From positions 500,328 to 564,327 of the forward strand of contig JAHQWG010000016.1 in the NCBI GenBank assembly GCA_029856045.1: a DNA stretch of 64,000 bases, given 5' to 3'. The stretch is from Promethearchaeia archaeon. GTDB lineage: Archaea > Asgardarchaeota > Lokiarchaeia > Sigyniarchaeales > SOKP01. The stretch's first letter is position 1; each line of letters begins with the position of its first letter. The notes below the pieces were generated by a model. It had not been told where the DNA came from and did not search any database. It was given only the letters and a program-made list of their open reading frames with translations. The position numbers and the translations under genes are program-made. Of the stretch, positions 3,446-29,451 are shown in pieces.

Positions 3446-3590
3446 AAAAAACAATTTCTCTATTTCAACTTTTAGTGAATGCTTTATTATAAGTGAAATA
3501 ATTAAAATCACCTACAATATAAAGAACTTACGTAGTATCACATAGAAGTATTAGATATATAATGAAAATTTTAGAAAAATAAAAGAAGAA

Positions 3591-5324: not shown

Positions 5325-5423
5325 TTTTGATCAATTCAAAAAAAAAAATTATTGATTTTGATTAATTCTAATAATAAGATTTGCGATAAATTAATATTTA
5401 AAATTAACTAACTTTGAAGTTCG

Positions 5424-12500: not shown

Positions 12501-13372
12501 CTATTTGTGGCATCTTTCGAGACACATTCCCATACATTTTAGATTTAATAAATCATGCAGTTGAATTGGTTGTTGATTTGGATGAACCTTTAGAGCAAAA
12601 TTATGTAAAGAAATCAGCAATGGAATTAAAAGAGCAAGGTGCTGAAAATCCAGAAGCAAGAGTTTTTGGTCCACCTCCAGGCAAATATAATACAAATTTA
12701 ACTAATATTATTTCTGCTGGTCAATGGGAAAATGAAAAAGAACTAATCGATGATTACCTTAATAATATGAGCTATGCATATATGCGAAATCAAAAAGTAA
12801 AGAGGAGTGTCAAGGCATTTTCTGAAAATATAAGAAAAATAAACCTTATGAGTCAAATTCGGGATTCAAGTGAATATCATATAACGGATTTAGACCATTA
12901 TTATGAATTTACCGGTGGATTAGCCAGAACCTATGAAGAACTAAGTGGTAAAAAGGCTAATATCTATATTGCGGATACCTCCAGTAAAAAAATTAAAGTT
13001 GACGCCATAGAAAAAAGCATAAAAGAAGGGGCAATTACAAGAACTTTAAATCCTCGCTGGATTAAAGGGTTGTTAGTTCATAAATACCATGGAGGACAAA
13101 AAATTGCAGAAAAAGTTGAAAACATATTAGGTTTGGCTGCAACAACACATAGTGTGGATAATTGGATTTGGGATAAATCATATGAACAATACTTCGAAAA
13201 TGAAGAAATACGAGAGGCTTTGATTGAAAATAATAGGTTTGCTATGATGGATATTATAAAAAATATGCTCCAAGCGGACCAAAGAGGTTATTGGGATGCA
13301 CCTGAGGAAAAGATTGATAACCTAAAGAAGCTATTCCTTGAACTAGAAAATTGGGTTGAAATGATGTATTAA
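9551..13372 (+). CDS. Class I chelatase large subunit (ChlH/BchH-CobN family)
   Basis: MPELDG, YNYPPG, HIGTHGTEEFLPGK, AKRR, PMGLH, PTGRN, LNPRWI motifs. Confidence 0.92.
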   Translation: MGKKINIDRKIPKITLISASIFMKHITDGIQEIYNELGKIFEFKSYFLNDVDSGKVKKEDFIKKIYESEVMLIDIRGNCPTVEILVETYDKMERENPELFQEKTIVALVGGNSEIRRLTQMGPFLARKIPAPKSTEYGTDEIPDLTTAVRFGQKMTEMMRFLGRILPIKSLRHARYWVLMMNYWTYGFAGMASNHKNMILFLLKHYLGHKDLDVSKPAKIPSYGIYDVKMNKYFDKLDDYLIEKPLNANKQTIGLFYYGGLYFEQSLPIVEEFTNYLSDYNIIPVFSDILTNVEAHEKFFFKKGLKIVSLIINLQYFQLNGGPLGGDGSVTLELFKKMDIPHFNPIIQFDMSYEEYQNSQEGIIPINQIIAVVMPELDGRFEMLTVGCMKNLGYSEEIHSDVLEVAPLTENIKFTTERIRKWLNLREKLNSEKKIAIIIYNYPPGEDKIGNAAYLDVSESLRNLLNTLKKEGYAIESLPEDKNLAEIFLKNGSVNSPKYTSVDNFNGTLLSKGKYLEYFNSLSNKLQQEIIEFWGEPIGKIMVENSSIKLPITQLKNIYICLQPSRSTVSGDPNDYHNKNLPPHHQYLAFYRYIEDIIKADAIIHIGTHGTEEFLPGKECAGSFNDYNLNLLGSLPNIYYYHITNTSESAIAKRRANALIINHAGPSFKNSDLYEDLERLESLIVEYQNQFSLGSSSSVESVKSERIRDLEKEIDEIAKDLNLEYRSISELEDLLYRYKISIIPMGLHVLGKNYNLEEKFDLIRMILINSGEIPPAIENIVSKFGTNEREQSENIKEYLMDIIRKLSLFVEINKNVVKKISKELETEYDLTQEDHNLMIEWIGNLLDRMDNSMEMSNIIHALEGGYIEPGLGGDPIRSPHIFPTGRNSFGFDPRLIPNTTAYRRGGEIAEKLIQNYKKENNKWPQTVSVVLWAFETMKTGGETVGQIFNYLGVRAVKNKSIWTTELEVIPLEELNHPRINVITTICGIFRDTFPYILDLINHAVELVVDLDEPLEQNYVKKSAMELKEQGAENPEARVFGPPPGKYNTNLTNIISAGQWENEKELIDDYLNNMSYAYMRNQKVKRSVKAFSENIRKINLMSQIRDSSEYHITDLDHYYEFTGGLARTYEELSGKKANIYIADTSSKKIKVDAIEKSIKEGAITRTLNPRWIKGLLVHKYHGGQKIAEKVENILGLAATTHSVDNWIWDKSYEQYFENEEIREALIENNRFAMMDIIKNMLQADQRGYWDAPEEKIDNLKKLFLELENWVEMMY

Positions 13373-13387
13373 GTTAGGAGTAAAAAA

Positions 13388-13729
13388 TTATGTTAATTTT
13401 TTAAAAAGAGCTTGGAATTCTGCTTTTACATTTGATAATCCTAGGGTTCCAAGTAAATGTATAGTCTTTTTATTTAAAGAATAGAAAGAGCGTAGTTCAT
13501 TACGCTTATATTCTTTTCTCTTTTCATTTCTAATGAAGTTCTTTTCTCTTAGTATTTTTAGATGATAATTTAATTTATTTTCTTGGACAGATGATAACAA
13601 TTTTTTTAATTGGCTGAAAGATAAAGATTGTTCACTTGCGAAGAGAGTTAGAAGAATTTTATATCTTGTTTTTTCGGAAATGATTTCTAAATCTTTTCTC
13701 ACATTCTCAAAGTTTTTGGGGGTCTGTAT
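13388..13729 (-). CDS. ArsR-like winged-helix transcriptional regulator
   Basis: TRYKILLTL...LSFSQL...LNYHLKIL. ORF track starts at GTG 13702, but the RBS AGGAGTGA points to ATA at 13729. Confidence 0.8.
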   Translation of the reverse strand: MQTPKNFENVRKDLEIISEKTRYKILLTLFASEQSLSFSQLKKLLSSVQENKLNYHLKILREKNFIRNEKRKEYKRNELRSFYSLNKKTIHLLGTLGLSNVKAEFQALFKKLT

Positions 13730-13876
13730 TTTTTCTCACTCCTATTTAAAGTTATTTTTTTTTTTAATCTAATTAATAAATATTTTAAAATATTATTTTA
13801 ACTACTTAGAAAATTTTTAAAAATTAATTTATCATTCAATTACACTAAATTAAATAATGACAAAGGTAGTTAAAAA

Positions 13877-14686
13877 ATGCCAAAAAAAGTTAAATATATT
13901 GATTTATCAATCCCCATAGCTAATGATACTTTATGTGATCCTCCACTCACGACGCCTAAAATTGAATATGGTGATCATATTAGAGGGGCTGAAGAAATGG
14001 CTTTCGCATTTCCAAAACTGAAACCTGAAGAGCACTTACCCGATGGAAAAGGATGGGTTACCGAATCAATTACTCTATCAACTCATAGCGGATCCCATAT
14101 GGACGCTCCATGGCATTATGCTCCTGTGCAAGATAGAGAGATTGGGGAAAGAAAGGCAATGACAATCGATGAAATTCCATTGGAATGGTGTGTAGGACCT
14201 TTAATTGTTCTTGATTGTACTAATTTTGAAGAAGGTTATGTAATGACATCTGAGGATATAGATCACAAATTAAATCAAATAAATCATAAATTACAGGAAG
14301 GAGATATCCTTTGTGTTCATACTAATGCTCCGAAATATTTCGGGACTAGAGAATATATTAATCATGGAGTAGGCGTTGGAAAAGAAGCAACATTACATAT
14401 TATTAGACAAGGCGTTCACGTAGTTGGAATCGATGCTTGGAGTTGGGACGCTCCGTTTTTGATTACAGCGAAAAAATGGAAGAAATCAGTTAAAGAAAAA
14501 AAACCAAACCCAAGCATTATTTGGGAGGGTCATTTTGCTGGTATCGAATTAGGATACTTCCAAATGGAAAAACTAACAAACTTAGATAAGGTTTCTCCCG
14601 TTGGAGCTACAATTTATTGCTTTCCTATAAAAATAACTGGTGCTAGCGGAGGATGGGTGCGTGCGGTAGCAACATTGCCCCAATAA
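13877..14686 (+). CDS. Cyclase family / kynurenine formamidase-like metal hydrolase
   Basis: HSGSHMDAPWH (HxGxHxDAPxH) motif, EKLTNL, PIKI..ASGGWVRAVA. Confidence 0.9.
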   Translation: MPKKVKYIDLSIPIANDTLCDPPLTTPKIEYGDHIRGAEEMAFAFPKLKPEEHLPDGKGWVTESITLSTHSGSHMDAPWHYAPVQDREIGERKAMTIDEIPLEWCVGPLIVLDCTNFEEGYVMTSEDIDHKLNQINHKLQEGDILCVHTNAPKYFGTREYINHGVGVGKEATLHIIRQGVHVVGIDAWSWDAPFLITAKKWKKSVKEKKPNPSIIWEGHFAGIELGYFQMEKLTNLDKVSPVGATIYCFPIKITGASGGWVRAVATLPQ

Positions 14687-14772
14687 TTCCATAAAAAAAG
14701 TTTTTATATTAATCAAATTTCAAAAAACTTTTGATATATTTTTTAATTCAGTTATTTCATTTTTACTTTAAA
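14472..14772 (+). repeat. Direct repeat A, copy 1 (cyclase 3' end plus trailer)
   Basis: Matches 16941-17241 with 5 mismatches in 301 bp by hand alignment. Confidence 0.95.
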
Positions 14773-14863
14773 CGGAGGTATTTCTTGGTCAATTTCAATA
14801 TCATTTGGATTTTTACTTTTCAATTTCATCTATCACCAGCCAATTTAATAAAAAATTCATGAT
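14759..14863 (-). pseudogene. Duplicated fragment of the junction between the two MaoC genes
   Basis: Matches 18615-18719 with 2 mismatches in 105 bp. Confidence 0.92.
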
Positions 14864-14943
14864 CATTATAATTTGATCACATTTCGAAATTCTGTAATCG
14901 AATAGAATACCCATTATAATGGGAATTAAAAAAAAAAGGGAAA

Positions 14944-15744
14944 TTAAAATTTGGTTTTTTTCTGAAAAATTATAATTCCTAGGATTATGAATATAAGAGT
15001 AAATCCAAAAATAATTAGAACTCCACCCCAGATAGGGATTGGAATTGCCTCGGCAGTATATCCAATCAAGGAGCTACTATATAATTGCTCTTCTAACCCA
15101 TGACCCATCACTGTGATTTGCATATAAACTTGTTTTGCCCAATATGGAGGTGTAAAATAAACTATTGGACTTTCAAATGGCATAAGGGAACCTGAAATGA
15201 AAAGGATTGGTAAATAATACATCAACGAAAAACCATTTGCGATTTGTGGGGTTTTTGAAACGCTAGCGATTATAATACCCATACCAACCGCAGAAATACC
15301 AAATAAAAGCGAAACCAAAAACCCTATCAATAAACCTAACAAATTATTGAAGTAAACTCCAAGAATAACATACCCTAGGACGAACATAATGATTATTTGA
15401 AGCGTCAATGTTATAGATTCAGAGATTAAAGATCCGAGGAAGACATTCTTCCTACCCGTTGGCATTGTATCTAATCTCTCGAGCATACCTGAACTTTTAT
15501 CTGATGCAAATCCAATTGCCGCACTTACGGTTCCAACGCTCGTTGCATATATTATCATCCCAGGAAAACCATAATCAAAGGACGATAAACCATTAGAAAT
15601 TCCTTGACTGCCAAGAATGAAATAGAACAAGAATGTAAACATAATTGGAAATCCGAGGGAAAAAAGGTAATATTCCCAGCGACGGAATGAATCTTTTAAA
15701 TTCTTGATAGCAATAACAATCATCTTTTTATCTAATATATCCAT
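14944..15744 (-). CDS. ABC-2 type exporter permease
   Basis: About 6 TM helices; PG, SGMLERLDTMP and FISGSLMP motifs. Confidence 0.9.
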   Translation of the reverse strand: MDILDKKMIVIAIKNLKDSFRRWEYYLFSLGFPIMFTFLFYFILGSQGISNGLSSFDYGFPGMIIYATSVGTVSAAIGFASDKSSGMLERLDTMPTGRKNVFLGSLISESITLTLQIIIMFVLGYVILGVYFNNLLGLLIGFLVSLLFGISAVGMGIIIASVSKTPQIANGFSLMYYLPILFISGSLMPFESPIVYFTPPYWAKQVYMQITVMGHGLEEQLYSSSLIGYTAEAIPIPIWGGVLIIFGFTLIFIILGIIIFQKKTKF

Positions 15745-16716
15745 TTAATCTCTCAACCTCCTTCCAGTTAAATTTAGAAATACATCTTCGAGAGTGTTTT
15801 GACGGAAATTCATGGTTTCGACATCATTAATATTTTCAACGAGAATTAGTTTTTGGAAAATTTCTATAAAATTCTTCATACCACCCTTAAACGAAATCAA
15901 AAGAGTTCTTTCACCAATTACATTATAATTATTTACGGATGATATATTATCACACTGATTTTTGACGATATTCAAATCCTCTTTCTCAGAAAAAGTAATT
16001 TCTATCACATTTTCACTTCCATGCTTTTCTTTTAACTCAGTTGGTGAACCTTGAGCAATAATTTTCCCGTGATCTATAATTGCAACATGATCACTGAGAG
16101 AATCAGCCTCGATCATGTCGTGTGTCATGAGAACAATTGTAACACCCTTATTCTTTAAATCACGAATAAAATCCCAAACAATTCGCCTTGCTTGAGGATC
16201 TAATCCAGCTGTGGGTTCATCAAGAAAGAGAATTTCAGGTTCATGAACTAGAGCCATTATCAGGTTTAAACGACGTTTCATGCCGCCTGAAAATTTTTTC
16301 GCCCAAATCTTTCGACCACCAATATCCAATTTTTCTAACAAGGTTTTAGCTTTCTCTTTTGCCTTCTTAAAAGGAATATCGTGCATTTGAGCGACGAAAA
16401 TAACATTTTCTTCAGCTGTTAATATGTCATAAATTACAATTTCTTGAGGACAGACGCCAATTAACTTAATAATACTACTTTTCCCTGTTTTAATACTATG
16501 TCCCTTAATTGTTGCATCACCCGATGTTGGTGTCAGAACAGTTGTTAATAGTCGAGCTAATGTTGATTTTCCAGCACCATTTGGACCTAGAATGCTAAAC
16601 AATTCTCCTTTCTGGATATTTAAAGACACACCATCAACTGCTTTAATATCTTTAAAATGCTTTTTGATATTCTGAATTTCAATAACAGTAGATTTTTCAA
16701 TAACAGTATTACTCAT
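15745..16716 (-). CDS. ABC exporter ATP-binding protein (DrrA-like)
   Basis: GPNGAGKST, FSGGMKRR, LFLDEPTAGLDP, TLEDVFL.LTGR.LRD. Confidence 0.93.
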   Translation of the reverse strand: MSNTVIEKSTVIEIQNIKKHFKDIKAVDGVSLNIQKGELFSILGPNGAGKSTLARLLTTVLTPTSGDATIKGHSIKTGKSSIIKLIGVCPQEIVIYDILTAEENVIFVAQMHDIPFKKAKEKAKTLLEKLDIGGRKIWAKKFSGGMKRRLNLIMALVHEPEILFLDEPTAGLDPQARRIVWDFIRDLKNKGVTIVLMTHDMIEADSLSDHVAIIDHGKIIAQGSPTELKEKHGSENVIEITFSEKEDLNIVKNQCDNISSVNNYNVIGERTLLISFKGGMKNFIEIFQKLILVENINDVETMNFRQNTLEDVFLNLTGRRLRD

Positions 16717-16940
16717 ATTATGACATCATATTTTAAAGAAGTGAATTTTAATATATTTAGTATATTCAAGGCTCTCTTTTTATTTTTTATTTTTTACTTT
16801 TTATTTTTTATTTTATTTAACTATTTGTAATAAATTTTTTTAAAACTATATGTAGATTAAGTTTTTAATATTAGATAATTTATTTTCATCATTATTTAAT
16901 TTGAATAGAGTTTTAAATCATAAATTAATCGCTTTCTTAT

Positions 16941-17241
16941 AAAAATGGAAGAAATCAGTTAAAGAAGAAAAACCAAACCCAAGCATTATTTGGGAGGGTC
17001 ATTTTGCTGGTATCGAATTAGGATACTTCCAAATGGAAAAACTAACAAACTTAGACAAGGTTCCTCCCGTTGGAGCTATAATTTATTGCTTTCCTATAAA
17101 AATAACTGGTGCTAGCGGAGGATGGGTGCGTGCGGTAGCAAAATTGCCCCAATAATTCCATAAAAAAAGTTTTTATATTAATCAAATTTCAAAAAACTTT
17201 TGATATATTTTTTAATTCAGTTATTTCATTTTTACTTTAAA
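16941..17241 (+). repeat. Direct repeat A, copy 2; contains a 5'-truncated cyclase remnant (16941-17155)
   Basis: About 98% identical to 14472-14772; encodes only the last ~70 codons of the cyclase. Confidence 0.95.
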
Positions 17242-17482
17242 TACTCAATTAACAATAAAAAAAAAATATCAAGAACCCTTTTGTTTGAGAAGAAAAGACT
17301 TCTTTACAAAATACTTACTTCAAAATGGATATATTTCTTTTGTATTTTAAAAAAAAAGCGTAATAAATTATGTTTAATTTTGAAAAAGCTATAAATACCT
17401 CTTATAATAATTATCTAATTGGTTTAATAAAACTAGAATAACAATAAAAAAGTCCTTAAACATATGTAAAAAGGTTGGAAAA

Positions 17483-18175
17483 TTGAAAAAATATATAAAA
17501 ATTAATCTAACTTTCATTTTAATAATATTCCAATTCTTGTTGGTTTTTTATATACCTGTGAATGCCCAAGTAAATAAATCCTTCTATCCAGTTGCCGATT
17601 CATATGTCAGAGATCATTATCAAGAAAATAATTATGGAAATTTAGATTACCTAATGATTGCCAACTATACAGATAAAATAGCTTTCAGCTTCATTATGTT
17701 TGATCTTTCTGATCTTCCTAATGATGCTTATATAAATTTGGGAACTTTAAAACTAAAATCAAAATATATCGGTCGAGGTCTTATAAAATATGACCTTCTT
17801 TCCCCTAATTCTATTGGAGTTTGCAAATCAGAAAATATTACTTGGATAGAAACTGATATCAATTGGAATAACAAACCTGAGTTCTCCCAAGAAACAATCT
17901 CAATAGATGGTGTTTACAGTCCTGATACTTGGGGAACTTGGAAGATAACCGAAGTTATTATACCAGGGGAAAAATTAACAATAGTATTGAAAGCATATCA
18001 TGAAGAAACTGGTTTTTATTCGAGGGAATCAGATTATTGCCCTGAGTTAGAGATAGAATATCTAGAAAGGGGTTTCATAATTATAGTTCAAATAATAGTA
18101 GCAGTAAGTGCAATTAGTGTAATAATACTCGTAAGTTTTATATATATGCGTCGGAGAAGAAGCAAAAAAAAATAA
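17483..18175 (+). CDS. Secreted, C-terminally anchored DNRLRE/CBM96-like domain protein
   Basis: Signal peptide; PVADSYV...NYG...FIMFDLS...W.E..INWNNKP...FYSRE...PELEI; C-terminal TM helix followed by RRRRSKKK. Confidence 0.75.
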   Translation: MKKYIKINLTFILIIFQFLLVFYIPVNAQVNKSFYPVADSYVRDHYQENNYGNLDYLMIANYTDKIAFSFIMFDLSDLPNDAYINLGTLKLKSKYIGRGLIKYDLLSPNSIGVCKSENITWIETDINWNNKPEFSQETISIDGVYSPDTWGTWKITEVIIPGEKLTIVLKAYHEETGFYSRESDYCPELEIEYLERGFIIIVQIIVAVSAISVIILVSFIYMRRRRSKKK

Positions 18176-18252
18176 ATTCTTATGCTATTTTTACTATTAG
18201 CCAAATTTCTATAAAATTTTTAATATATTTTTTAATTTAGTTATTTCATTTT
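18176..18252 (+). repeat. Third, diverged copy of the intergenic trailer (core ATATATTTTTTAATTYAGTTATTTCATTTT)
   Basis: The 30-bp core at 18223-18252 matches 14734-14763 and 17203-17232 at 29/30; weaker similarity extends back toward the stop codon. Confidence 0.8.
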
Positions 18253-18685
18253 ATCTATTTTTTATAAAAATAAGATTTATAATACCATTCATTACTGTTT
18301 CCCCACTTAATTTTTCAACTAAATACTTGCAGATTATTATCTTTTTATTACCAATATTCTGGATCTCCACAACTTTTCCCTTACAAACTATTTCCTCATC
18401 AATATAAACGGGTTTTCCAAATTGCATGGTAATATTTTTTATTAATTTTATATCAACAACCCAATCAATTATCCACTTGGTTATAAAAGAAAATAAAAAA
18501 TTACCAGCAATAACAATATTATCAAAACCCAATTTTTTAGCATAATTTAAATTAAAATGAAGAGGATTAATCTCATGAATCAATCTATTATACTTTCCGT
18601 ATACTTTTTTTTCAATTTTTGCTTTAAACGGAGGTATTTCTTGGCCAATTTCAATATCATTTGGATTTTTACTTTTCAATTTCAT
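18251..18685 (-). CDS. MaoC family (hot-dog fold) dehydratase
   Basis: EINPLHFN..YAK.LGF..IVIAG, F.KPVYIDE. Confidence 0.85.
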   Translation of the reverse strand: MKLKSKNPNDIEIGQEIPPFKAKIEKKVYGKYNRLIHEINPLHFNLNYAKKLGFDNIVIAGNFLFSFITKWIIDWVVDIKLIKNITMQFGKPVYIDEEIVCKGKVVEIQNIGNKKIIICKYLVEKLSGETVMNGIINLIFIKNR

Positions 18686-19185
18686 CTATCACCAGCCAAT
18701 TTAATAAAAAATTCATGATTATCTATCGCATAAATTGTATCATTCTCGCCTAAAACAGATGTTTTAAAAATAACAGAATAATAAGTTCCTTTTTTACCTG
18801 TTTTTTTAACCGGTTCCGTTAAATCAATTTTTACTTTATATTTTTTATTCAATAACATTGGACTATAAAATTCAACTTCCGAACTTGTATGTATAACTCC
18901 AATAGCTAATTTTTGATAAAATTCAGGTCCTATTATAATAAAGAATTGATTTATTGCCCTGTTAGTTATGCTCATAAAATAACCCGGTGGAATTAATCTA
19001 CCTTGATAACCCTTTTTTATTGCTACTGCATCATCTAGGTAAATTGGATTATTATCATCAATCAACTCACAGAATTTATTAATTTCTCTTTCATCTATGT
19101 TAATCTCTTGAGTTCCCATTTCTCTTACTACTTCTTTTATTCGAATCTTAAATTTTTTTACTAATTGAGTTTTACTTCCCGCCAT
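18682..19185 (-). CDS. MaoC_dehydrat_N / hot-dog fold partner subunit
   Basis: DDNNPIYLD..A...GY...IPP, H...EVEFY.P; overlaps the next gene by 4 nt. Confidence 0.85.
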   Translation of the reverse strand: MAGSKTQLVKKFKIRIKEVVREMGTQEINIDEREINKFCELIDDNNPIYLDDAVAIKKGYQGRLIPPGYFMSITNRAINQFFIIIGPEFYQKLAIGVIHTSSEVEFYSPMLLNKKYKVKIDLTEPVKKTGKKGTYYSVIFKTSVLGENDTIYAIDNHEFFIKLAGDR

Positions 19186-19357
19186 TATTTTACTTCTGTT
19201 AAATAATTGGATAATTTAATAAAAGTTAAATTTAGATATTTAAAAAAATTCTTTATCTAACTTATTTGATAAATGGATTCTATAGAATTTTTTTATTTAA
19301 TATTTATACGTTTTTTTCTAAAATATAAATATATAATTAAGAAAAAAGAAAAAAAAT

Positions 19358-20545
19358 ATGTTTGATGTAATAGTTTCAGGAGCAGGACCAGCAGGGTCAA
19401 AGTGTGCCGAAATCTTGGCTAAAAATGGTTTTAAAGTAGCCCTAATTGAAAAAGATATTAATTGGCGAAAACCTGGTGGCGGAGGTTCAAGTGTAAGGCT
19501 TTTTAAATATTACCCCCAATTAAGAAGCTTGAATCTTCATAAAAAACATACAATTAAGATGTATTCCGCTGATTTTCATAAATTGGAATATAAATATAAA
19601 GGGTTTGAGGATTACTCAGTAGTAATTGATCGATTGGAATTAGATAATTTGATGAGAGAAGTAGCAGTTAACGCTGGTGCAGAACTCTTTGATAAAAATC
19701 TTTCATTTGATTTTATAACTAAAAACCAACAGAAAATTGGAATTAAAACAAAAACCTCTTCAGGGATGAAAGAATATTTTGGAAAAGTGATTATCATTGC
19801 TGATGGGATGAGTTCTAAATTAGCAATAAAATCTGGTTTAAGAAAACGTTGGAAAACCGAAGAATTAGGTATATCAAAATGTGCGATAATGGAAGGGGAA
19901 AATTCAATGGATATTAATACCGTATATTTTTTTTACAAACCATTTTATGGTTATGGCTGGATTTTTCCTATTGATCAAAAACGTTTCAACATTGGCGTTA
20001 TCACATTCTATGAAGATAATTATAATCATAATCTAAATAAACTTTATAATGATTTCTTAAAAGAACCGAAAGTAAAAAAGCTATTATTTAAATCAGATTA
20101 TAAACAAATTTGGATGAGTTCCTATCCTTTACCAAGTACAGGAGTGTTAGAGAAAAGCTTATATGGAAATAATTTAATGATCGTGGGTGATGCTGCAGGT
20201 TTTACATCTCCAATAAGTGGAGAAGGGCTACATGCTTGTGTAGTATCTGGAAAGGTTGCAGCTGAAACAGCGATTAATGCTTTTAAAATAGAGGATTTCT
20301 CCGAAAAGGCACTAAAAAAATACAAGTTTAATGCAAATATAAAAAAAATAATTAGGAGTTTTAAATTAAAGCGCTCGCTTGCAGATTTTTTTTATGAACA
20401 AGGGGGCATTAATCTAAATATAATTTTTAAATTGGCTGAAAACGATTCAAAATTTAGAAAAACGACAACGGATATCTTTTTATTTAACGCAACTCCTCCA
20501 AAAGACTTTTTTTCAAGAATTAAAAAAGCAAATTTTAAATTTTAA
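19358..20545 (+). CDS. Geranylgeranyl reductase family FAD-dependent oxidoreductase
   Basis: GAGPAG, ADG, YGWIFP, GDAAG...PISGEG. Confidence 0.88.
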   Translation: MFDVIVSGAGPAGSKCAEILAKNGFKVALIEKDINWRKPGGGGSSVRLFKYYPQLRSLNLHKKHTIKMYSADFHKLEYKYKGFEDYSVVIDRLELDNLMREVAVNAGAELFDKNLSFDFITKNQQKIGIKTKTSSGMKEYFGKVIIIADGMSSKLAIKSGLRKRWKTEELGISKCAIMEGENSMDINTVYFFYKPFYGYGWIFPIDQKRFNIGVITFYEDNYNHNLNKLYNDFLKEPKVKKLLFKSDYKQIWMSSYPLPSTGVLEKSLYGNNLMIVGDAAGFTSPISGEGLHACVVSGKVAAETAINAFKIEDFSEKALKKYKFNANIKKIIRSFKLKRSLADFFYEQGGINLNIIFKLAENDSKFRKTTTDIFLFNATPPKDFFSRIKKANFKF

Positions 20546-20807
20546 TTTTTTTTTATTAAAAAAAAGTAATAATAATTCAACTAATTTCTCGTAATAATTC
20601 ATCAATTAAGTCTAAACCAGCTAATAAGTGTTCCTTTTTGGTACCAATACCGATGCGGATATAACTATCCATCCCGAAACAGTCTCCTGCCACTATGAAA
20701 ACATCCTTCTCTTCTCTGAGTTTATTAGAGAGTTCTGTGGAATTGATTTTCATATTATATCGCAAGAACGCCAGACCTCCTGCACTAGGCGGAACGAATT
20801 GAAAGAG
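20458..20807. repeat. Composite direct repeat B, copy 1 (GGR 3' end plus convergent aminotransferase 3' end)
   Basis: 20458-20533 aligns to 25457-25532, and 20570-20807 aligns to 25589-25826. Confidence 0.92.
20577..20807 (-). pseudogene. 5'-truncated aminotransferase remnant (last ~76 codons)
   Basis: About 83% nt identity, without indels, to the 3' end of 25596-26708. Confidence 0.9.
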
Positions 20808-20841
20808 ATTTTATCTTAGTTAATAATAATTTAAGGGTTTT

Positions 20842-21822
20842 TCAATCTTTACTAGTCTGTTCTGTTCTTAAAATCTCCTGAAACAAGGAGTTTTCAATAT
20901 TTCCTCCACTCACCACGGCCACCACATTCTTTTTTGCGAATTTCCGCTTTTCTTCAAGGATGTGGGCAATGACCGTTGCTCCCGCTCCTTCAACGATCTG
21001 CCCCTCTTTCTTCCATAAAAGGCGGATTGCTTCTTCGATACTTTTCTCCTTGACTAAGACCAACTCATCTACATACTTTTGTACCAATTCCAAGGTGATA
21101 GCTTCGGGATCAAGACCACCCAATAAGCCTTCCGCTAATGTATGATACTCTTCAACTTTTACCACTTTTCTAGCTTTCCAAGATTCATACATTGTGGAAG
21201 CTCCCTCCGTTTGAACCCCTATTATCTCGACATTAGGGTTCAAAGATTTTACTGCGATGGCAATTCCAGAAATTAAGCTTCCTCCACCAACAGGAACAAT
21301 AATTAAATCTACCCGTCCAATCTCTTCATAAATCTCAAGACCTATTGTTCCTTGACCCGCTATAACCTCCAGATCATTGTATGAACTGATGTAGGGTATA
21401 TTTTTGCTTATAGATATCTCTCTTGCTTTTGTATAGATCTCTTCAAAGTCTCCTTCTTGAATAACTTTGATATCATACTCCTTCATCTTGTTTAGCTTGG
21501 CTTTTGATACATTCGTTGGAACTACAATTATGGCAAAGATACCTAAATGTTTTGCAGCTAAGGATACTGCCAATGCATGATTCCCTGATGAAGCGGTAAC
21601 AACACCACGAGACCTCTCTTCTGTACTTAATTGCATCATTAGGTTAAATGCTCCTCGTATCTTGAAAGAGTTGGTAATTTGTTGATTCTCCAACTTGAGA
21701 TAGATTGTGCCATTACATAGCTCACTAAAAAACTCTGAATAGACAAGAGGTGTTCTCTTGACAAACTCGTTGATTCTCTTTTGCGCATCCTTTATTTTTT
21801 TTAGATTAATTATTTCAGATAT
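20842..21822 (-). CDS. PLP-dependent threonine/serine dehydratase (no ACT domain; EutB/serine racemase-like size)
   Basis: SFKIRGA, SSGNH, GQGTIGLE, PVGGG, SGGN. The conserved N-terminus (RI...RTPL...IYLKLE) is in frame upstream of the track start at 21693. Confidence 0.9.
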   Translation of the reverse strand: MSEIINLKKIKDAQKRINEFVKRTPLVYSEFFSELCNGTIYLKLENQQITNSFKIRGAFNLMMQLSTEERSRGVVTASSGNHALAVSLAAKHLGIFAIIVVPTNVSKAKLNKMKEYDIKVIQEGDFEEIYTKAREISISKNIPYISSYNDLEVIAGQGTIGLEIYEEIGRVDLIIVPVGGGSLISGIAIAVKSLNPNVEIIGVQTEGASTMYESWKARKVVKVEEYHTLAEGLLGGLDPEAITLELVQKYVDELVLVKEKSIEEAIRLLWKKEGQIVEGAGATVIAHILEEKRKFAKKNVVAVVSGGNIENSLFQEILRTEQTSKD

Positions 21823-22130
21823 ATGAAACCACCATCTGATTATGAATTTAGTTATTTCTTAATAATTAACTCTAACAATTTTACTTCTTATAAATTTTTT
21901 TACAGATACAAATCATGGAAAGTCAAGTTATCGGCAAATTAATCCCTTTACTACAGGTTTTAATTTAATAATAAAATTTGGGTATAACCTATCTTCAAAC
22001 CTATTACTACTTGTTTTATCTAACGTTATAAAAAAAAATATTAAAATTTAGAAATACTTTTAAGATTACCTTGATAACTAGAAACTCCGTGTGCTCATTT
22101 TACTCAATAATACATAGATTATTTGACTAA

Positions 22131-22910
22131 CTATACTCCAGGAATACTTGTCCGTTTGTGGATGAAGTCCAGTGCCTTGGAGACAATTGTGATCAGAGCT
22201 AGAAAAATGAGAGCGATAAAAACATATGTGGTGAGTGTGCGAAATGTATTTGCAACGATAAAATGTGCCTCGCCAAAGAGGTCCACCACTCCAATGAAAA
22301 ATACAACAACGGTGTACTTCGGAAGATAAGCAGCTTCGTTGGACCACGCAGGAATAACACGACGCAGAGCCTGCGGTAACACGACATGACGAATGGCAGC
22401 CAGGCGAGACATACCCAGCGATTGGGCAGCCAATAATTGTCCAGTTCCAACAGACTTAATGGCTCCACGGATGTATTCAGCCTGATAGGCTGCACTATTA
22501 AGACCTAACGTGAGGAGACCGACAAGCATTCGGTGATCAAAGATGGTGTAAGTAATAATCCGGTCTAGGATTATGATGTCGGTCTGGATATTCCACTTCC
22601 CAATGGGTATGGGGGAAAGACCTTGTGCCTCCAAAATAGAATTCATGCTGTAGGGGAGAAAGTAGATGAAGAACAACTGCGCGAGTAAGGGTGTACCACG
22701 TATAATTTCAATGTACCCAGTAGCAATCCGTGAAAGAATTATCCCTCCATACTGGCGGAGAAGAGCGAGCAGAAGACCAAGGAAAAAACCCATCACAAGT
22801 GCCCCTCCATACAATTCCATCGTAGTCAGGAACCCTGCGAGGATATGATCCCAGTATTCCAGTACGCGGAGAATGTCCTCTATCGGTTGAGGGAGTACTT
22901 GGAACATCAC
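22131..22910 (-). CDS. Polar amino acid ABC transporter permease
   Basis: [25 protein letters not shown]. Confidence 0.92.
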
Positions 22911-23686
22911 TTGCTTTCCTCCTCGTTTGAACGCTTCAGAAGTTCTTTATGGCTTCCGTATAAAATATCAAGCTGTTTGAGAAAGTGTTTCACCCGCTCG
23001 GATTTGGGCGAGACGAAGAAGTGCTGGGGGGTCCCCCGTTCTACAATGATTCCATTATCGAGGAAGAGCATTTCTGATGCTACGGCTTTAGCAAATCCCA
23101 TTTCGTGAGTTACGACTATCATTGTAGTACCAGATTTAGCGATGTCTAACATCACTTGAAGCACTTCGCCGATCAGTTCGGGATCCAAGGCAGATGTAGG
23201 CTCATCAAATAAAATTACATCTGGCTTCATGGACAAAGCACGTGCAATACCCACACGTTGTTGTTGACCACCAGATAATTGTGCAGGATAGTGGTCTGCC
23301 CACTTCGCCATTTTGACACGACCCAACATCTCTAATGCCTTTGCTCGAGCCTCTTCCTTTGGTAACTTTTTTACCCGGCGAAGACCAATACTGACATTAT
23401 CTATCGCTTTGAGGTGGGCAAACAAGTTAAAATGCTGGAATACCATGCCGATTCTCGCCCGCATCATATTAGGATTGACTCCAGGTGCTATAAGATTCTG
23501 TTCGTGGAGATATACTTCACCCTTGTCTAGTGGGTCCAGCATATTTATGCAACGAAGCAACGTGCTCTTGCCAGAGCCACTTGGCCCAAAGATGACCTTG
23601 ACCTCTTGCTCCCCCACCTCGAATGAGACTCCCTTAAGGACCTGTAAATCCCCATATGACTTCCAACCATCAACTATACGTATCAC
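22907..23686 (-). CDS. Polar amino acid ABC transporter ATP-binding protein (GlnQ-like)
   Basis: [36 protein letters not shown]. Confidence 0.95.
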
Positions 23687-23700
23687 AGATTTAACGATAT

Positions 23701-24390
23701 CTAATCCCCTCCCATTCCCAACTTCTTAAGTTTCTTGGTTTGTCGTTCGCCAAACATCTTTGTTATAGGGAAAGTAAAGATAAAGTATATAATCGCAACA
23801 ACAACCATCGTTGGAGCCCAGAGCAGCGGATAATTAGCAGATACACGAAATGCCACCTTTAGCATCTCAATAATTCCAAATCCATAGGCGTAGGACGAAT
23901 CCTTGATGACCACCGCATATTCATTAGACCAGCTGGGTATTGCCAACCGTAGGGCTTGGGGCAACACAATGTGTCGAAAAGCTTGAAACTGGTTCATACC
24001 TAGTGCACGAGCAGCCATCATCTGCCCTGGGTCCACGGATAAGATAGCCCCGCGAAAAAGTTGAGATTGGTAAGCCCCACTGCGAAGGCCAAGCGCCAAA
24101 ATTACGCCGAAAAACGGTCTCATAAGAGGGTCTATAAACCAAAATATACCCGGTATTCCAAAGACGAAGATGCTTATCAAAATCAGAAGTGGGATGCCGC
24201 GCAACACTTTCTCGTAAGCGCTCGCTATCCAACCGAGTTCTATACCGCCGTAGACACGCATTATTGCCAGCGATAGACCTAGCACAAACCCCCCCAACAG
24301 ACCTAGGGCAGTGAGTAATAAGGTTGTAGGCAATCCATTCACAAGAATATAAAAAAAAATAGAAGGGAGATCTGGCGTCTCCACCATCAC
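23701..24390 (-). CDS. Polar amino acid ABC transporter permease
   Basis: [30 protein letters not shown]. Confidence 0.92.
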
Positions 24391-24397
24391 TCACCCC

Positions 24398-25183
24398 CTA
24401 AAACCACTTTGCGATGAGAGTATCCATCGTCCCGTCTTTAAAGGCTTCAAGCAGGGCTTTATTGATTGTCGCCATCAATTCTGGTTCTTCCCATTTACAC
24501 CATAATGCTGTAGGCTCAGCTGGTACTATAAAAATGGACTTGAAGCCGTATGCCGAATACTGGCCTAAGACTGGCTCGTCTATGAATGCTACATCGATAC
24601 CACCAGCGTCTAAGTCGGCGAGCATTAAAAGTGCGCTAACGTATGACGCATAATCTACATTAGCGTCTGTTAACTCTTCCTCTTGGGTGGTCCCCGCTTG
24701 ACAACCGACCGATTTGTCGGGAAGAGCTGCTAAATCCTCTAATTTAGTAATTGTAAGGCTTGAATCACCCCTAACAATGATTAATTCGTTTACACGAATG
24801 TAGGGCACGGAATGCGCGAGAACCTCTGCGCGTTTTGGAGTGACCATTATTGCGGCTGCAATCATATCGATTGTGCCTCCAGTACAAGCACCAACCAGCA
24901 AGTCAAAATCCATGTCTTTCCATTGGATAGTAACATTGAGTTCTGCTGCAACCAATTCTGATATGTCAATGTCGAAGCCTTCCAACTCTTCTGTTGTTGT
25001 ATTGTAAATCTCGAAGGGTGGCCAATCAGAACTAGTTCCAACAATGATATAACCTCGCGCCTTAATCTGATCAACTAGCGATACGCGTGTTACCCCAGCA
25101 AGAAATGGGGAAAAAAGCCATCCAGCTGCGAACCCTGCCACAACGCAGACTATTATCACTATTGCTGTAATTCCTTTCCTCAT
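24398..25183 (-). CDS. Polar amino acid ABC transporter substrate-binding protein (family 3)
   Basis: N-terminal anchor, GTSSDWPPFE, GFDIDI, TPKR, QAGTT. Confidence 0.92.
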   Translation of the reverse strand: MRKGITAIVIIVCVVAGFAAGWLFSPFLAGVTRVSLVDQIKARGYIIVGTSSDWPPFEIYNTTTEELEGFDIDISELVAAELNVTIQWKDMDFDLLVGACTGGTIDMIAAAIMVTPKRAEVLAHSVPYIRVNELIIVRGDSSLTITKLEDLAALPDKSVGCQAGTTQEEELTDANVDYASYVSALLMLADLDAGGIDVAFIDEPVLGQYSAYGFKSIFIVPAEPTALWCKWEEPELMATINKALLEAFKDGTMDTLIAKWF

Positions 25184-25456
25184 TTTATTTCATTTCTTTT
25201 TATTTTATTTTAATTTATTTTATTAAATTTAATTTTTTTTATATAAATATTATATAAATATATAAAGATTTCGTTCTTTATTTATTAACTGTGAATTATC
25301 TTTAATCTCAAAATTTTTATTGCTCACCAACAAGATGTAGTATAAAACGTTAATTCATTAATTGCAACAGTATTATAAAATATTAGATTGCATTATCATA
25401 TATTTTGAGTATAAATCTAGATAAAAATGCTTAAAATCCCAATACGATGATTGGGA

Positions 25457-25826
25457 AAAAACAGTAACAGATATCTTTTTATTTAACGCAACTCCTCCAA
25501 AAGATTTTTTTTCAAGAATAAAAAATGCAAATAGAAATAAGCTAGAATTAAATAAATAAAAATGAAAATTCTTTCTCCATCTTCTTTATAATAATTCAAC
25601 TAATTTCTCGCAACAATTCATCAATTAGGTCTAAACCAGCTAAAAAATATTTTTTTTCAGAACCAATACCAAGGCGTATATAGTTGTCCATCCCGAAACA
25701 GTCGCCGGCTACAACAAAAACATCCTTTTCTTCCCTGAGTTTAGTGGAGAGCTCTGTGGAATTGATTTTTATATTATACCGCAAAAATGCCATACCTCCT
25801 GCATGCGGGGGTATGAAATGAAAGAG
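25457..25826. repeat. Composite direct repeat B, copy 2
   Basis: Aligns to 20458-20807 with a different spacer between the two gene ends. Confidence 0.92.
25458..25559 (+). pseudogene. Remnant GGR C-terminus
   Basis: Translates KTVTDIFLFNATPPKDFFSRIKNANRNKLELNK*, versus KTTTDIFLFNATPPKDFFSRIKKANFKF* in the intact gene. Confidence 0.88.
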
Positions 25827-26708
25827 CTCCTTATGATTTTTAACCCATTCCACTAATGTACCTAGATTTCCACTCAATAATTTCCGATTACGACTTAATA
25901 CTTTCTTTCTTAATTCGGGTTGCAAAACTAAAGTTGCAACACGTTGGCTAATAAGATTTGTAGCAATAGTTGTATAATCACTATAACTCCATGCTTTCTC
26001 AATAAACTTTTTTAGTCCAACCAACCAACCAATCCTTAAACCTTGAAGCGCATAGGCTTTAGCGAGTCCGCCGTTTACAATAACTTTTTCATATTGTCCC
26101 CAAAAAGTAGGTGTTTCCTTACCACTTAATTCTGCACCACGGTATATTTCATCAACATATAACCAAACATTTGCCTTTCTCGCTAAATAAACAATAGATT
26201 TCATTGCTTCTTCACTTAATACAGCCCCTGTGGGATTATTCGGATTGCAGATGGCTATCATTTTTGTTTTGGGTGTTATTTGAGATTTTAATTCTTCGAT
26301 ATCAGGTTGCCAATTCAAATCTTCTTTTAGATGAAAGGGTTTAATTTTGACCCCAAAAGAACGAGCAAGTCCAAAAATTTGCATGTAGTTTGGCAACATG
26401 AATATTAATTCATCATTTGGTTCTAAAAGGCTCCAAATAGTTAAAAAATTTGCTTCAGCAGAACCATTTGTCACTAAAACATTATCTATATCTGCCCCCA
26501 GATATAAAGAACTGATTGTTTTTCTTAATTCTACGGGACCATTTGTCTGACCATATCCAAGTCGCATGGAAAGTATTTTTTCTAATTCATCCTCGTTTAA
26601 TAACTCTTTTAGTGAATAAGGGTGAACACCACTTTCAGTCAAATTGTATTTAACTGTATTTTCCCATAATGATTGGGTTCTTTCAAGCATAAATTCTTCT
26701 AATTTCAT
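25596..26708 (-). CDS. Class I/II PLP-dependent aminotransferase
   Basis: NPNNPTG, DEIY, GLAKAYALQGLRIGW. Confidence 0.92.
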   Translation of the reverse strand: MKLEEFMLERTQSLWENTVKYNLTESGVHPYSLKELLNEDELEKILSMRLGYGQTNGPVELRKTISSLYLGADIDNVLVTNGSAEANFLTIWSLLEPNDELIFMLPNYMQIFGLARSFGVKIKPFHLKEDLNWQPDIEELKSQITPKTKMIAICNPNNPTGAVLSEEAMKSIVYLARKANVWLYVDEIYRGAELSGKETPTFWGQYEKVIVNGGLAKAYALQGLRIGWLVGLKKFIEKAWSYSDYTTIATNLISQRVATLVLQPELRKKVLSRNRKLLSGNLGTLVEWVKNHKELFHFIPPHAGGMAFLRYNIKINSTELSTKLREEKDVFVVAGDCFGMDNYIRLGIGSEKKYFLAGLDLIDELLREIS

Positions 26709-26758
26709 GAAATTTTCTCTTTTTTATCAATTTGATTTATTATAAAATTTTATCACTC

Positions 26759-27727
26759 CTAACTAGTAGATGGTAAAGATTCATATATTGCTTTTGAAAT
26801 TTGAATATCTTGAACAGCCACTCCGGTTAAATCTGCAACGGTAATTTCTTCATCTGAAGCACGTTGCAATGTTTTATTAGAAATCATAACTCCTAATTCA
26901 ATTAAATCTTCCTTATTAATCATACCATTTTTAATTGCACGAAAACATTCCCCACGTGATTGAGACTGATCGATGCTGTCAACTATTACCCTATCTGCTT
27001 TTTTTAAGATTGCAGAATCTAACTCTTGTTTTTCGGGAGTATCCGATCCCATAGCTGTGATATGAGTACCTTTCTGAATTTGATCCGCATATATCAACGG
27101 AGTCTTTGAAGGTGTGCATGTGACGACAAAATTACAAGTCGAAGTTACATCCTCTGTATTTAAAGTCGTTTTAATATTATAACCTAATAGGTCCATATCT
27201 TTTTTATATGCATCTAATTCCTGTTGCGTTATCCCACAGGCAATAACATCCTTACAATCTATAATAGTTTTTAAATATTGTAGCTGCATTCTTCCCTGAA
27301 CGCCAGGACCAATAATTCCTATTCGATGAACCTTTTTTGGAGCCATATATTTAGCTACAACTGCACCCGCAGCCGCAGTTCTCACATTGGTAAGATGCCC
27401 CTCATCAAGTAAGATGCAAACTAATTCTCCTGTTTTTTGACTAAACAACAGCATAAGCCCACTATATCCAGGAAGCCCTATTTTTGGATTATCGTAAAAC
27501 CCAGCAGCAATTTTAATAATATAATAATCATCTCCTTTAATGTATCCGTATTTAATATGGCAATCGCCCGGAGGATTCTCAAAAATCATTTCACCAATCG
27601 GGGGTACTACTACTTTACCCTGAGAATAAGCAACAAATCCTTCTTCAATTTTTTGTATCGGATCAATTGATTTCAAAATTTCTTTAATTTGTTCTAATTT
27701 TATTATTTTACTCATTTTTTTATTCAT
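26759..27727 (-). CDS. Ornithine cyclodeaminase / mu-crystallin family protein
   Basis: LTNVRTAAAG, GPGVQG, MGSD, DLTGVAVQD. Confidence 0.92.
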   Translation of the reverse strand: MNKKMSKIIKLEQIKEILKSIDPIQKIEEGFVAYSQGKVVVPPIGEMIFENPPGDCHIKYGYIKGDDYYIIKIAAGFYDNPKIGLPGYSGLMLLFSQKTGELVCILLDEGHLTNVRTAAAGAVVAKYMAPKKVHRIGIIGPGVQGRMQLQYLKTIIDCKDVIACGITQQELDAYKKDMDLLGYNIKTTLNTEDVTSTCNFVVTCTPSKTPLIYADQIQKGTHITAMGSDTPEKQELDSAILKKADRVIVDSIDQSQSRGECFRAIKNGMINKEDLIELGVMISNKTLQRASDEEITVADLTGVAVQDIQISKAIYESLPSTS

Positions 27728-28446
27728 ATATTTCTCTCTTTTTAAGGGGATTTAAATATTATTATCAATATCAATTTAAATTTTTTAAGATTATAAATCT
27801 ACCAGAATGAATTTATTAAACTAGTTATAATTATATAAATTGATTTTTCTTCTATTGTATTCCTTAAAATAAAGTATAATTGAAATTATAAATTGTTTTT
27901 CTAGTTTCATATATTACCATTTTTAAAAACATCAATGAATATTTTTGATCTTGATCAATAAAAAAACTAACATTTATGCAATTTTTAGGAAAAATGGTTT
28001 TAAAAAAATCTAAAAAGAATATTCTTCATTCCGATTTCATTTCTCTTTCCTTACTTTTTTGACTAATTTGGGAATAATTTCATATATATTGAAATTTTTT
28101 TGGAATAATTTTTCAATACCACAATTTTCCCATTATGACAATTTCTATTAAATTCAATTTGAATATTCTTATTTTCCCATTTAACGATGTATCAAGTTAT
28201 AATTCAACGATTTTATTAGTATTCAATCTTATTTTGTAAGGTAAACCTGTTTGATATGTGGATTTTCAAAAATACGAAATTCTTATACAAAAAAATTAAA
28301 TTATGGAAATGAAAAAGTAAAAAATGTGAATGAAAAAGGAATAAAAATTAAGAAATTTCATGATTTATCTAAAATCAATCAATTTTCTGCTCCAAAAGCT
28401 TTAAATACTTGATTGTTGTTAATAATTTTAAATAATAAAAAAAATT

Positions 28447-28800
28447 ATGAGTGAAAAAAATATGAGTCAAAAAGTTGAACCAAAAATTGAAAGTGTTTTA
28501 ACTGAAATTCAGAAAGTTAAAATTTTCAATTTGGTTAGATATGTTTCAAAAAACACTTGCGAACGAGTTTGTCCTGAAATCTTAGATATGCTTTTAAATA
28601 GTGAAAAAGGAAAGTTAAAAAGCAACTTAGGTAAAACTATATTTCATTTACAGCGAGTAGAAAGACTTAACTCAACTATTGGGTTAGAAAGATTAATTGA
28701 AGCAGGATTATTAGTTGATACTGATGGACTTCTCAAAATTTTAGAATCATCTGAGCAAGATGCAAAAGACTTAGCAAGTGAAATGAGAGAAATTCTCTAA
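28447..28800 (+). CDS. Hypothetical helical protein
   Basis: 117-aa ORF with normal composition; no motif recognised. Confidence 0.7.
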   Translation: MSEKNMSQKVEPKIESVLTEIQKVKIFNLVRYVSKNTCERVCPEILDMLLNSEKGKLKSNLGKTIFHLQRVERLNSTIGLERLIEAGLLVDTDGLLKILESSEQDAKDLASEMREIL

Positions 28801-28884
28801 TAATAAACAAAATTTTTTTAATTTCTTTTACATTTTTATCTTTAATTTTAGATCTACTATTTAAAAAATTAAAGGAGTATTGAA

Positions 28885-29451
28885 ATGTTTCAGGGATTTA
28901 ATGAACAAATGTCAGCTTTAGTTTCACCTGTTAGATTTGATACATTTTCATCTTCTATCTTGTGTGAACTTAAAATAAAAAGTTCTGAGCAAATTAATCT
29001 TAATAAAGGTGATTTTGTTAAAATTTTTGGAAAAAAAAGGGTAACTGTATGCAAGATTAAAAAAATATCATATGAACATAAAGATAATATTATATGCATT
29101 CCATATAAGATAAGAAATAAGTATGGCATTAATCTAAATGATTTCATACGAATTCAAACTTTTCCTAAAAAGACTGCTAAATATGTCAAGATAACTCCAG
29201 TAGGTTTGGATTTTAAATCCACAAAAAAAATAATTAAATATATTAGAAAAAAGCTTTTAGACATGCCATTGGTAAAAAATGATATAATCTCTATTAATAT
29301 TGGTTTTAGAAGACATATTGATTTCGAAGTTTTGAATATTCAACCCACAAGTCCTGCACAAATATCTACAGGTACTGTTTTTGATATGGTTTTATCATAT
29401 CATCAAGAAAAGAAAATTAAGGAAAAACTAATTTTAACTCTAACTATTTAA
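28885..29451 (+). CDS. Stand-alone Cdc48 N-domain-like protein (double-psi barrel plus CDC48_2), no ATPase domain
   Basis: LNKGDFVKIFGKK.T..., I.IP.KIR...GINLND.I, AKYVKITP, L.DMPLVKND.I, F.VLNIQP...I...T; AAGGAG RBS. Confidence 0.78.
   Translation: MFQGFNEQMSALVSPVRFDTFSSSILCELKIKSSEQINLNKGDFVKIFGKKRVTVCKIKKISYEHKDNIICIPYKIRNKYGINLNDFIRIQTFPKKTAKYVKITPVGLDFKSTKKIIKYIRKKLLDMPLVKNDIISINIGFRRHIDFEVLNIQPTSPAQISTGTVFDMVLSYHQEKKIKEKLILTLTI

Follow-up and report, generated by a model that had tools for sequence, protein, structure and literature searches.

Insertion with long target duplication has been described for restriction-modification genes of bacteria (Furuta, Abe & Kobayashi 2010; PMC2853133), and its authors envisaged a life cycle of amplification and of exit by way of the flanking repeats. 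Our study concerns two gene junctions within a 64,000-nt stretch of the genome of a Promethearchaeia archaeon, according to the source record a Loki-type Asgard archaeon (genome G000; 3.34 Mb, 29.4 % G+C, 55 contigs), and the whole stretch (contig C27, 500328-564327), the gene content of which fits an archaeal host, is referred to here as the window. At the first junction, between a cyclase-family gene and a maoC gene (locus 1), and at the second, between a geranylgeranyl reductase (GGR) family gene and an aminotransferase (AT) gene (locus 2), cargo genes lie between direct repeats and the neighbouring genes are intact. We put at roughly 55 % the probability that integrase-free insertion with long target duplication left both loci as scars, and that homologous recombination among related Lokiarchaeia later reshaped them.

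The two loci resemble the published class in that the insert is missing from the collinear site of a related genome (at both junctions in the relative G004 and in the metagenome contig L059), and in that the direct repeats are long (>30 bp), variable in length and both alignable to one target copy. Also in keeping with the class, they have neither an integrase nor a transposase, their inserts (2.1, ~1.0 and 4.65 kb) are all <20 kb and the repeats often overlap gene ends. The loci differ from it in their cargo, which here consists of an ABC-2 exporter, a CBM96 protein, a dehydratase and an amino-acid ABC transporter; as there is no restriction-modification cargo, the double-strand cutting invoked by the authors of PMC2853133 is not available as a cause. 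They differ further in their Asgard host, the published screen having kept no archaeal case, in duplications that reach ~850-1800 nt, in arms with foreign alleles and in one cassette that has a copy of a former target with it. What had been known only from restriction-modification genes of bacteria is extended here to ordinary cargo and to archaea. An earlier note on this DNA had taken the loci for its best candidate for an undescribed system, a view that has to be given up because the same kind of insertion had already been described in bacteria. PMC2853133 cites an earlier Helicobacter pylori study by the same group, reportedly Nobusato et al. 2000.

Several other processes come close. Campbell-type (ends-in) homologous integration, the textbook process by which suicide vectors integrate in the laboratory, is similar in its additive outcome, in the homology duplicated on both sides, in the neighbours that are kept and in the mosaic at the AT stop codon of locus 2. 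It differs in that the illegitimate joints between cargo and arm seen here must have arisen first, and in that a double crossover gives the same mosaic. Integrative elements at gene 3' ends or tRNA genes that bring a replacement end, such as e14 and phage 21 in icd, also produce direct repeats corresponding to the gene end and a displaced copy that differs mostly at synonymous sites. Unlike these elements, the loci described here have no integrase in or near the inserts, no fixed core and no constant repeat length, and 5' ends and spacers are used as well. Homology-facilitated illegitimate recombination, with displacement of C-termini or effectors in Rhs, contact-dependent inhibition (CDI) and type VI secretion system (T6SS) loci (PMC5361080 and its references), shares with them the combination of one homologous anchor and one illegitimate joint, the lack of an integrase and the stubs of old alleles beside new genes. 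This displacement pattern was seen at two other sites in the genome, C27:76249 and C36:46055, where the stub is of resident type and the foreign allele runs through the whole live gene beyond the repeat. Locus 2 shows the reverse, with a foreign-type stub and live genes of resident type, and the cargo is not of the toxin/immunity kind. Transformation-induced merodiploidy via alternative pairing is a related known process (PMC3784515), and the Asgard mobile elements that we came across in the literature were all linked to integrases or tRNA genes, as are aloposons (PMC8813620).

Both junctions were compared with the genomes of the relatives G001, G002 and G004, the last of which belongs to the same genus, and with the metagenome contigs L059 and L060 (JABUBO010002016.1). 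In G004, the cyclase, maoC, maoC2, GGR and AT genes follow one another uninterrupted on one contig, and both junctions are empty there and in L059; the cyclase/maoC junction is also empty in G001 and G002, and G002 is probably empty at GGR/AT. Because both gene pairs are directly adjacent in G004 and L059, both loci are true gene gains by insertion. In G004, the two copies of each repeat fall on the same single target copy. At locus 2, they overlap by 350 nt on the corresponding G004 stretch (L022), where the left one ends at position 7456 and the right one begins at 7107, and at locus 1 the alignment with the empty site covers the cyclase end, the spacer and the maoC piece. The repeats (D1 and D3 at locus 1, D5+D2 at locus 2) were all recovered by self-BLAST of the genome at E<=1e-10 and are therefore not chance matches, and there is no N anywhere in the window.

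Repeat-bracketed cargo with intact neighbours is confirmed as a real feature of both loci (Table 1). The repeats lie where the earlier note had placed them and hold pieces of both neighbours, and its observation that the left gene is whole in the left copy and the right gene whole in the right copy holds at both loci. Its account of the left copy at locus 1 stood only in part: a maoC piece is present, but rather than a gene tail it is the start of maoC and the end of maoC2, after an internal deletion.

Table 1. Features of the two loci, in positions of the window
Feature	Position	Strand	Remarks
Locus 1
Cyclase-family gene, intact left neighbour	13877-14686	+	PF04199, 1.2e-33; abuts maoC directly in G001, G002, G004, L059
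Target duplication 1, left copy (last 215 nt of cyclase + 85-nt spacer)	14472-14771	.	98 % identity to 16941-17240
maoC start + maoC2 end remnant in left copy (D3 partner)	14752-14866	.	115 nt, 95 % identity to 18608-18722
Cargo 1: DrrA/DrrB-type ABC-2 exporter + upstream region	14867-16940	-	Pfam + NCBIfam matches
Cargo 1 permease	14944-15744	-	
Cargo 1 ATPase	15745-16716	-	
Target duplication 1, right copy (dead cyclase 3' fragment + spacer)	16941-17240	.	D1 pair, 300 nt
Nested insert with CBM96/DNRLRE-domain gene (17483-18175)	17241-18203	+	Between spacer repeats 17184-17232 and 18204-18252, 86 % identity
Two MaoC-type dehydratase genes, intact right neighbours	18251-19185	-	PF01575, PF13452; 96 % identity to G002 and G004
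Locus 2
Geranylgeranyl reductase (GGR) family gene, intact left neighbour	19358-20545	+	TIGR02032, 1.9e-51
Target duplication 2, left copy (GGR 3' end, G004-type spacer, foreign-type AT 3' stub)	20458-20807	.	
Aminotransferase (AT) 3' stub, dead	20577-20807	-	77 codons, frame + stop kept
Cargo 2, 45 % G+C	20808-25456	-	4.65 kb
Threonine/serine-dehydratase-like PALP gene, N-terminally short	20842-21693	-	
Polar amino-acid ABC transporter, SBP-permease-ATPase-permease	22131-25183	-	
Target duplication 2, right copy (dead GGR 3' fragment, second spacer type, live AT 3' end)	25457-25826	.	
Aminotransferase (AT), intact right neighbour	25596-26708	-	94-96 % identity to relatives (AT + OCD)
Ornithine cyclodeaminase-family gene (OCD), intact right neighbour	26759-27727	-	Same orientation as cargo 2

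Locus 2 provided the evidence on where its parts came from. The D5+D2 repeat pair shows 91 % and 83 % identity (78-91 % overall) with a 20-nt indel, and the G+C content of the cargo stands against ~29 % around it and genome-wide. Differences between the AT stub and the live AT gene number 10, 3 and 27 at first, second and third codon positions (chi-square p=1e-5), with a ratio of nonsynonymous to synonymous differences (pN/pS) of 0.164 at a synonymous divergence (pS) of 0.51; for the full-length AT genes of G000 and G004, pN/pS is 0.164 and pS is 0.11. As the ratio equals that of the orthologue pair while pS is 0.51 against 0.11, and as frame and stop are intact, the stub diverged as a working gene under purifying selection, several times more deeply than the species split. 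In a tree, the AT stubs of G000 and G001 formed a sister branch to all AT genes of the genus, with 98 % identity among the latter over this stretch. Identity to relatives is 93-96 % for the live AT and GGR genes, versus 83 % for the stub. The codon pattern and intact frame of the stub bear out the earlier claim that DNA from relatives took part. No intact AT gene of the foreign type turned up in 135 genomes of the family or in the metagenome collection, which contained no exact 21-mer of this type and in which the best relatives are of the genus type.

The spacers of locus 2 are of two kinds. The left spacer differs by 1 nt from that of G004, the right spacer is of a different type, with a 23-nt indel, that is common to G001, and the switch between spacer types is located at the AT stop codon. 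A reciprocal mosaic, in which the left copy is resident and then incoming and the right copy incoming and then resident, was seen at locus 2 in comparison with G004 and G001; the copies at locus 1, being 98 % identical, are uninformative in this respect. The mosaic of spacers and alleles is exactly the one predicted for a crossover near the AT stop codon with DNA of a diverged relative, and it could be given equally by the single crossover of a circle or by a double crossover importing a block of repeat, cargo and repeat.

Comparison with relatives further revealed that the cassette is found at more than this site. Exactly the segment 20808-25456 is 90.5 % identical to G004:C7:53875-58522, a different locus, where the cargo lies between small GTPase and phosphoesterase genes and between ~145-nt direct repeats that are 83 % identical. 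The same arrangement is found in G002, split across contig ends, and the GTPase/phosphoesterase junction is empty in G000 and G001. In G001, the cassette sits at GGR/AT with the same joint between AT stub and cargo as in G000, and its other end keeps 336 nt that adjoin the cassette in G004, ~165 nt of the GTPase/phosphoesterase junction and a 570-nt GGR fragment; G000 has lost ~1 kb of these extra pieces. The joint between GGR fragment and other junction is common to G001 and L060, an independent metagenome contig, at 95.6 % identity. On the basis of the joints in G001 and L060 and the placement in G004 and G002, cargo and a copy of a target travel together, and the GGR/AT junction is a hotspot whose contents differ from genome to genome. 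The arm carried in G001 includes ~20-45 nt outside the repeated segment, so that a circle formed by recombination between repeats could not contain the carried piece. At the novel joints, cargo and target share no more than ~0-9 nt of microhomology.

Further observations were made on the same cassettes and their surroundings. The stretch of L060 that shares AT, the second spacer type, the 570-nt GGR fragment and the other-junction joint with G001 spans 3826-5639; an MttB-family methyltransferase gene lies beyond the joint instead of the transporter, and the carried junction piece continues into a diverged phosphoesterase-side flank. In G001 (L023 from contig C23, 3975-5875), a further cassette with a 403-aa PALP enzyme and a RidA/L-PSP protein lies between GGR and the AT stub, and it truncates the GGR reading frame, which ends in ...SRI. 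The dehydratase of cargo 2 has 326 aa in G001 versus 283 aa (TTG start, N-terminally short) in G000 and G004. Beside the G004 cassette (L021, G004:C7:46000-65999; positions 2890-5895 and 13209-16263) are two features that are absent from the matching G000 site on C36. One is an N6-methyltransferase/Eco57I-like gene of 1001 aa, which probably encodes a type IIG restriction-modification enzyme; the other is a block of three ABC-2 transporter genes that seems to be flanked by a ~34-56-nt repeat. A second GGR-family gene, with 75 % DNA identity to that of the window, is located at G000:C27:87871-89081 and is conserved in G001, G002 and G004.

Locus 1 has a more layered structure. A 49-mer within the 85-nt spacer is present three times (14715, 17184 and 18204), and in place of this spacer G002 and G004 have an unrelated one of ~22 nt. 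Spacer copies 2 and 3 enclose the CBM96 gene, which has its own ~50-63-nt repeats on either side, and locus 1 is therefore two nested insertions. In the left copy, 9 nt from the beginning of the CBM96 cassette are followed by a jump to the start of maoC, the spacer being joined to maoC by an internal deletion at the TACTTTAAA/TGCTTTAAA microhomology (CTTTAAA). The 9-nt piece implies that the CBM96 insertion is older than the exporter insertion and, taken with the jump to maoC, that the exporter insertion duplicated a target of ~1.8 kb, which was later trimmed by deletion or template switch. As the cyclase-end copies are 97.7 % identical and their five coding differences (2, 2 and 1 by codon position) carry no codon bias, the exporter insertion is recent, or else the copies have been homogenised. 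Cargo 1 is not at the cyclase/maoC junction in G001, G002, G004 or L059; its best relative elsewhere, in G014, is 72 % identical and has no cyclase or maoC nearby, and the CBM96 insert had no DNA match among 30 relatives.

The cyclase gene was also examined for a swap of its C-terminus; it is 94-95 % identical to that of G004, falling to 88 % in the last 215 nt, versus a fall only to 92.6 % in comparison with G002. The gene is a mosaic among species, with 99 % identity between G004 and G001 over the first 200 nt and only 83-87 % over the last 400 nt, which points to interspecies recombination inside the cyclase. The gap between the HTH regulator and the cyclase is ~670 nt longer in G004 than in G000 (L022 3264-3937 versus window 13703-13876).

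No tRNA gene was found in the 64-kb window and no Rfam family match in 12000-29000. Typing of the cargo genes by Pfam and NCBIfam profile matches gave no recombinase domain in any of them, all cargo reading frames matching non-mobility families, and the ends of cargo 2 have no inverted repeat beyond chance 8-13-nt matches. These domain searches, tRNA and Rfam searches and end comparison agree with the earlier note, which had reported neither a recombinase nor a tRNA nor terminal inverted repeats. In the genome as a whole there is one tyrosine recombinase (PF00589, contig C8), which is Xer-like, and one TnpB-like gene (C47), and no serine recombinase (PF00239) was found in it. The inserts do not qualify as integrative elements or genomic islands, for there is no recombinase in or beside them and no tRNA or fixed att core. 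Neither do they qualify as DNA transposons or casposons, as they have no inverted ends and no cargo transposase and their duplications range over ~50-~1800 nt; Cas1 was not searched for. A possible shared element in the upstream regions of both cargo operons was rejected, as it matched many A/T-rich promoter-like stretches genome-wide. Three right-hand repeat copies start with AAAAA (AAAAATGG, AAAAACAG and AAAAACGC; window 16941 and 25457, and ~1060 of L024), and in such A/T-rich DNA these starts may be due to chance.

A self-BLAST survey of G000 for direct repeats of 60-700 nt, with at least 75 % identity and 0.6-12 kb apart, repeats within genes being left out, identified 27 structures in which cargo lies between repeats, 25 of them assignable to a junction class. 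Convergent junctions accounted for 9/25, compared to a genome background of 19.4 % (binomial p=0.04, in a count that includes the two loci that prompted it), divergent junctions for 3/25 (background 18.6 %) and tandem junctions for 13/25 (background 62 %). The enrichment at convergent pairs that the earlier note had made its check was therefore detected, albeit weakly, but the route is not specific to such pairs, as the 13 tandem and 3 divergent cases indicate. Repeats spanning both gene ends were seen only at locus 1 and locus 2, and on a reading of the structure contexts the repeats involve gene 3' ends roughly three times as frequently as 5' ends. Pooling of twelve other diverged events gave 136, 74 and 285 differences by codon position (p=1e-31). 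Seven further events were compared with relatives; empty sites were confirmed for four (C27:76249, C36:46055, C8:15660 and C49:37495), and C29:20208, C49:80768 and C51:83924 gave no clear empty site.

The structures listed by the survey include C27:76249-84231, C27:454967-463784, C29:3806-6743, C29:20208-29221, C36:46055-54134, C49:37495-40352, C49:80768-86296, C8:15660-18440, C51:83924-86510 and C42:15814-17521, among others. At C8:15660, the 577-nt repeats are 98 % identical and the single cargo gene is found elsewhere in G001, G002 and G004 at 92-96 % identity; a source site for it is not definable, as in these relatives it lies in regions without a counterpart in G000. On the same contig, G000:C8:8513-13991 is a 5.5-kb insert relative to G004 with an overlap of only ~9 nt.

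Insertion with long target duplication followed by homologous reshaping would proceed in steps. Initially, a DNA segment would be pasted or copied into a gene junction via two non-homologous joints with ~0-9 nt of microhomology, and a target of tens to ~1800 nt would be duplicated meanwhile; the likely cause would be replication-linked template switching or the repair of widely staggered breaks rather than a dedicated recombinase. Subsequently, as locus 2 shows, the repeat-flanked cassette passes between related lineages by ordinary homologous recombination, with the duplicated gene ends and flanks serving as arms, so that foreign-allele stubs and mosaic spacers are left and functional copies of the neighbours are kept. 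Later steps, visible in part, may include clean loss of the cassette through its direct repeats, trimming of the copies by secondary deletions and reappearance of the unit at another junction, still carrying a copy of the earlier target. Several points weigh against this scenario. The mechanism of the first joining step is putative, and the 27 structures per 3.3 Mb, a count for one genome, need not be unusually many. As the donor lineage of the foreign AT allele was not found in the family genomes or the metagenome collection, the AT stub could be a relic of a resident allele of older date and not an import, and the repeats of locus 1, 98 % identical and without codon bias, carry no information on foreign origin. 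All compared genomes look multi-contig and are probably metagenome-derived, and several are fragmented.

The explanation favoured in the earlier note, additive integration by a single crossover through a homology arm, takes its fullest form as a circle, produced by recombination between flanking repeats in the donor, that carries cargo and a junction-spanning arm from a relative and enters by one reciprocal, Campbell-type (ends-in) crossover. The mosaic of locus 2 has exactly the reciprocal pattern that crossing-over at the AT stop codon gives, the arms consist of foreign functional alleles, and the G001 and L060 cassettes carry a junction piece of another site, the same piece between repeats of which the cassette lies in G002 and G004. 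What stands of the earlier claim is the integrase-free, additive gain with a relative's DNA; the single crossover itself is indistinguishable from a double crossover importing a ready-made block of repeat, cargo and repeat, which gives the same mosaic. Homology arms cannot explain how the structures first originated, as the cargo/target joints are non-homologous, and the ~20-45 nt beyond the repeated segment in the G001 arm are impossible for a circle formed between repeats. In other events, moreover, the foreign allele fills the whole gene beyond the repeat, and we regard the circle as possible but unlikely. Tandem duplication in situ by slippage or unequal exchange, followed within a single lineage by cargo capture, internal deletions and neutral decay, had also been named as an alternative. 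The arrangement seen has the same topology as a tandem duplication that received an insert at its novel joint, and the nearly identical locus 1 repeats with their unbiased differences, as well as the microhomology deletions in the copies, are consistent with it. We nevertheless find it very unlikely, because a stub with a pN/pS of 0.16 and an open frame does not suggest neutral decay, one of the two spacer types is near-identical to that of G004, third-position bias is general in the other diverged events, and cargo 2, with its 45 % G+C, is also located elsewhere in relatives.

An unrecognised recombinase, transposase or nuclease encoded elsewhere and inserting cassettes in trans would suit the large number of events in a single genome, the end of cargo 2 on the dehydratase side, which is the same within a base or two at two sites, and the AAAAA at three right-copy starts. 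Such an enzyme is hard to reconcile with the lack of terminal inverted repeats and of any common core sequence that could be found, with duplication lengths that vary from ~50 to ~1800 nt, with targets that include 3' ends, 5' ends and spacers and with a genome that has only one Xer-like recombinase and one TnpB-like gene, and we hold it to be highly improbable. The joining of strain variants by the assembler has to be considered in a genome of 55 contigs with 3.5 % estimated contamination, in which the repeats are of the kind that break assemblies; contigs of G001 and G002 end inside the cargo 2 cassette. However, the joint between AT stub and cargo recurs in G001, the joint between GGR fragment and other site in G001 and L060, and the other-site repeats in G004 and G002, all of them independent assemblies. 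The window is also free of N, and the copies differ by substitutions and deletions that no assembler would create, leaving an artefact with almost no likelihood.

In summary, Asgard genomes hold many foreign genes and G000 is nearly without classical integrases and transposases, so that the ways in which genes enter and move matter. The stubs left at these junctions are datable records of earlier hosts and sites, which makes individual transfers traceable. After the insertion at locus 2, genes for an EutC-like cyclodeaminase-family protein, an aminotransferase, an EhuA/GlnQ-like transporter and an EutB/TdcB-like dehydratase are co-stranded (20842-27727) and together resemble an ectoine- or amino-acid-catabolism cluster put together by rearrangement. 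The placing of transporter and dehydratase beside the aminotransferase and the cyclodeaminase-family gene on one strand shows how a cluster of catabolic genes can come together with no mobile element involved. It is also conceivable, although distinctly unlikely, that Asgard archaea have a dedicated insertion pathway, either linked to the replication fork or carried out by a nuclease or primase-polymerase in trans, that moves units of target copy and cargo between junctions with 50-1800-nt duplications. If so, this would be a general integrase-free mobility system for gene cassettes, one that also assembles functionally related clusters.

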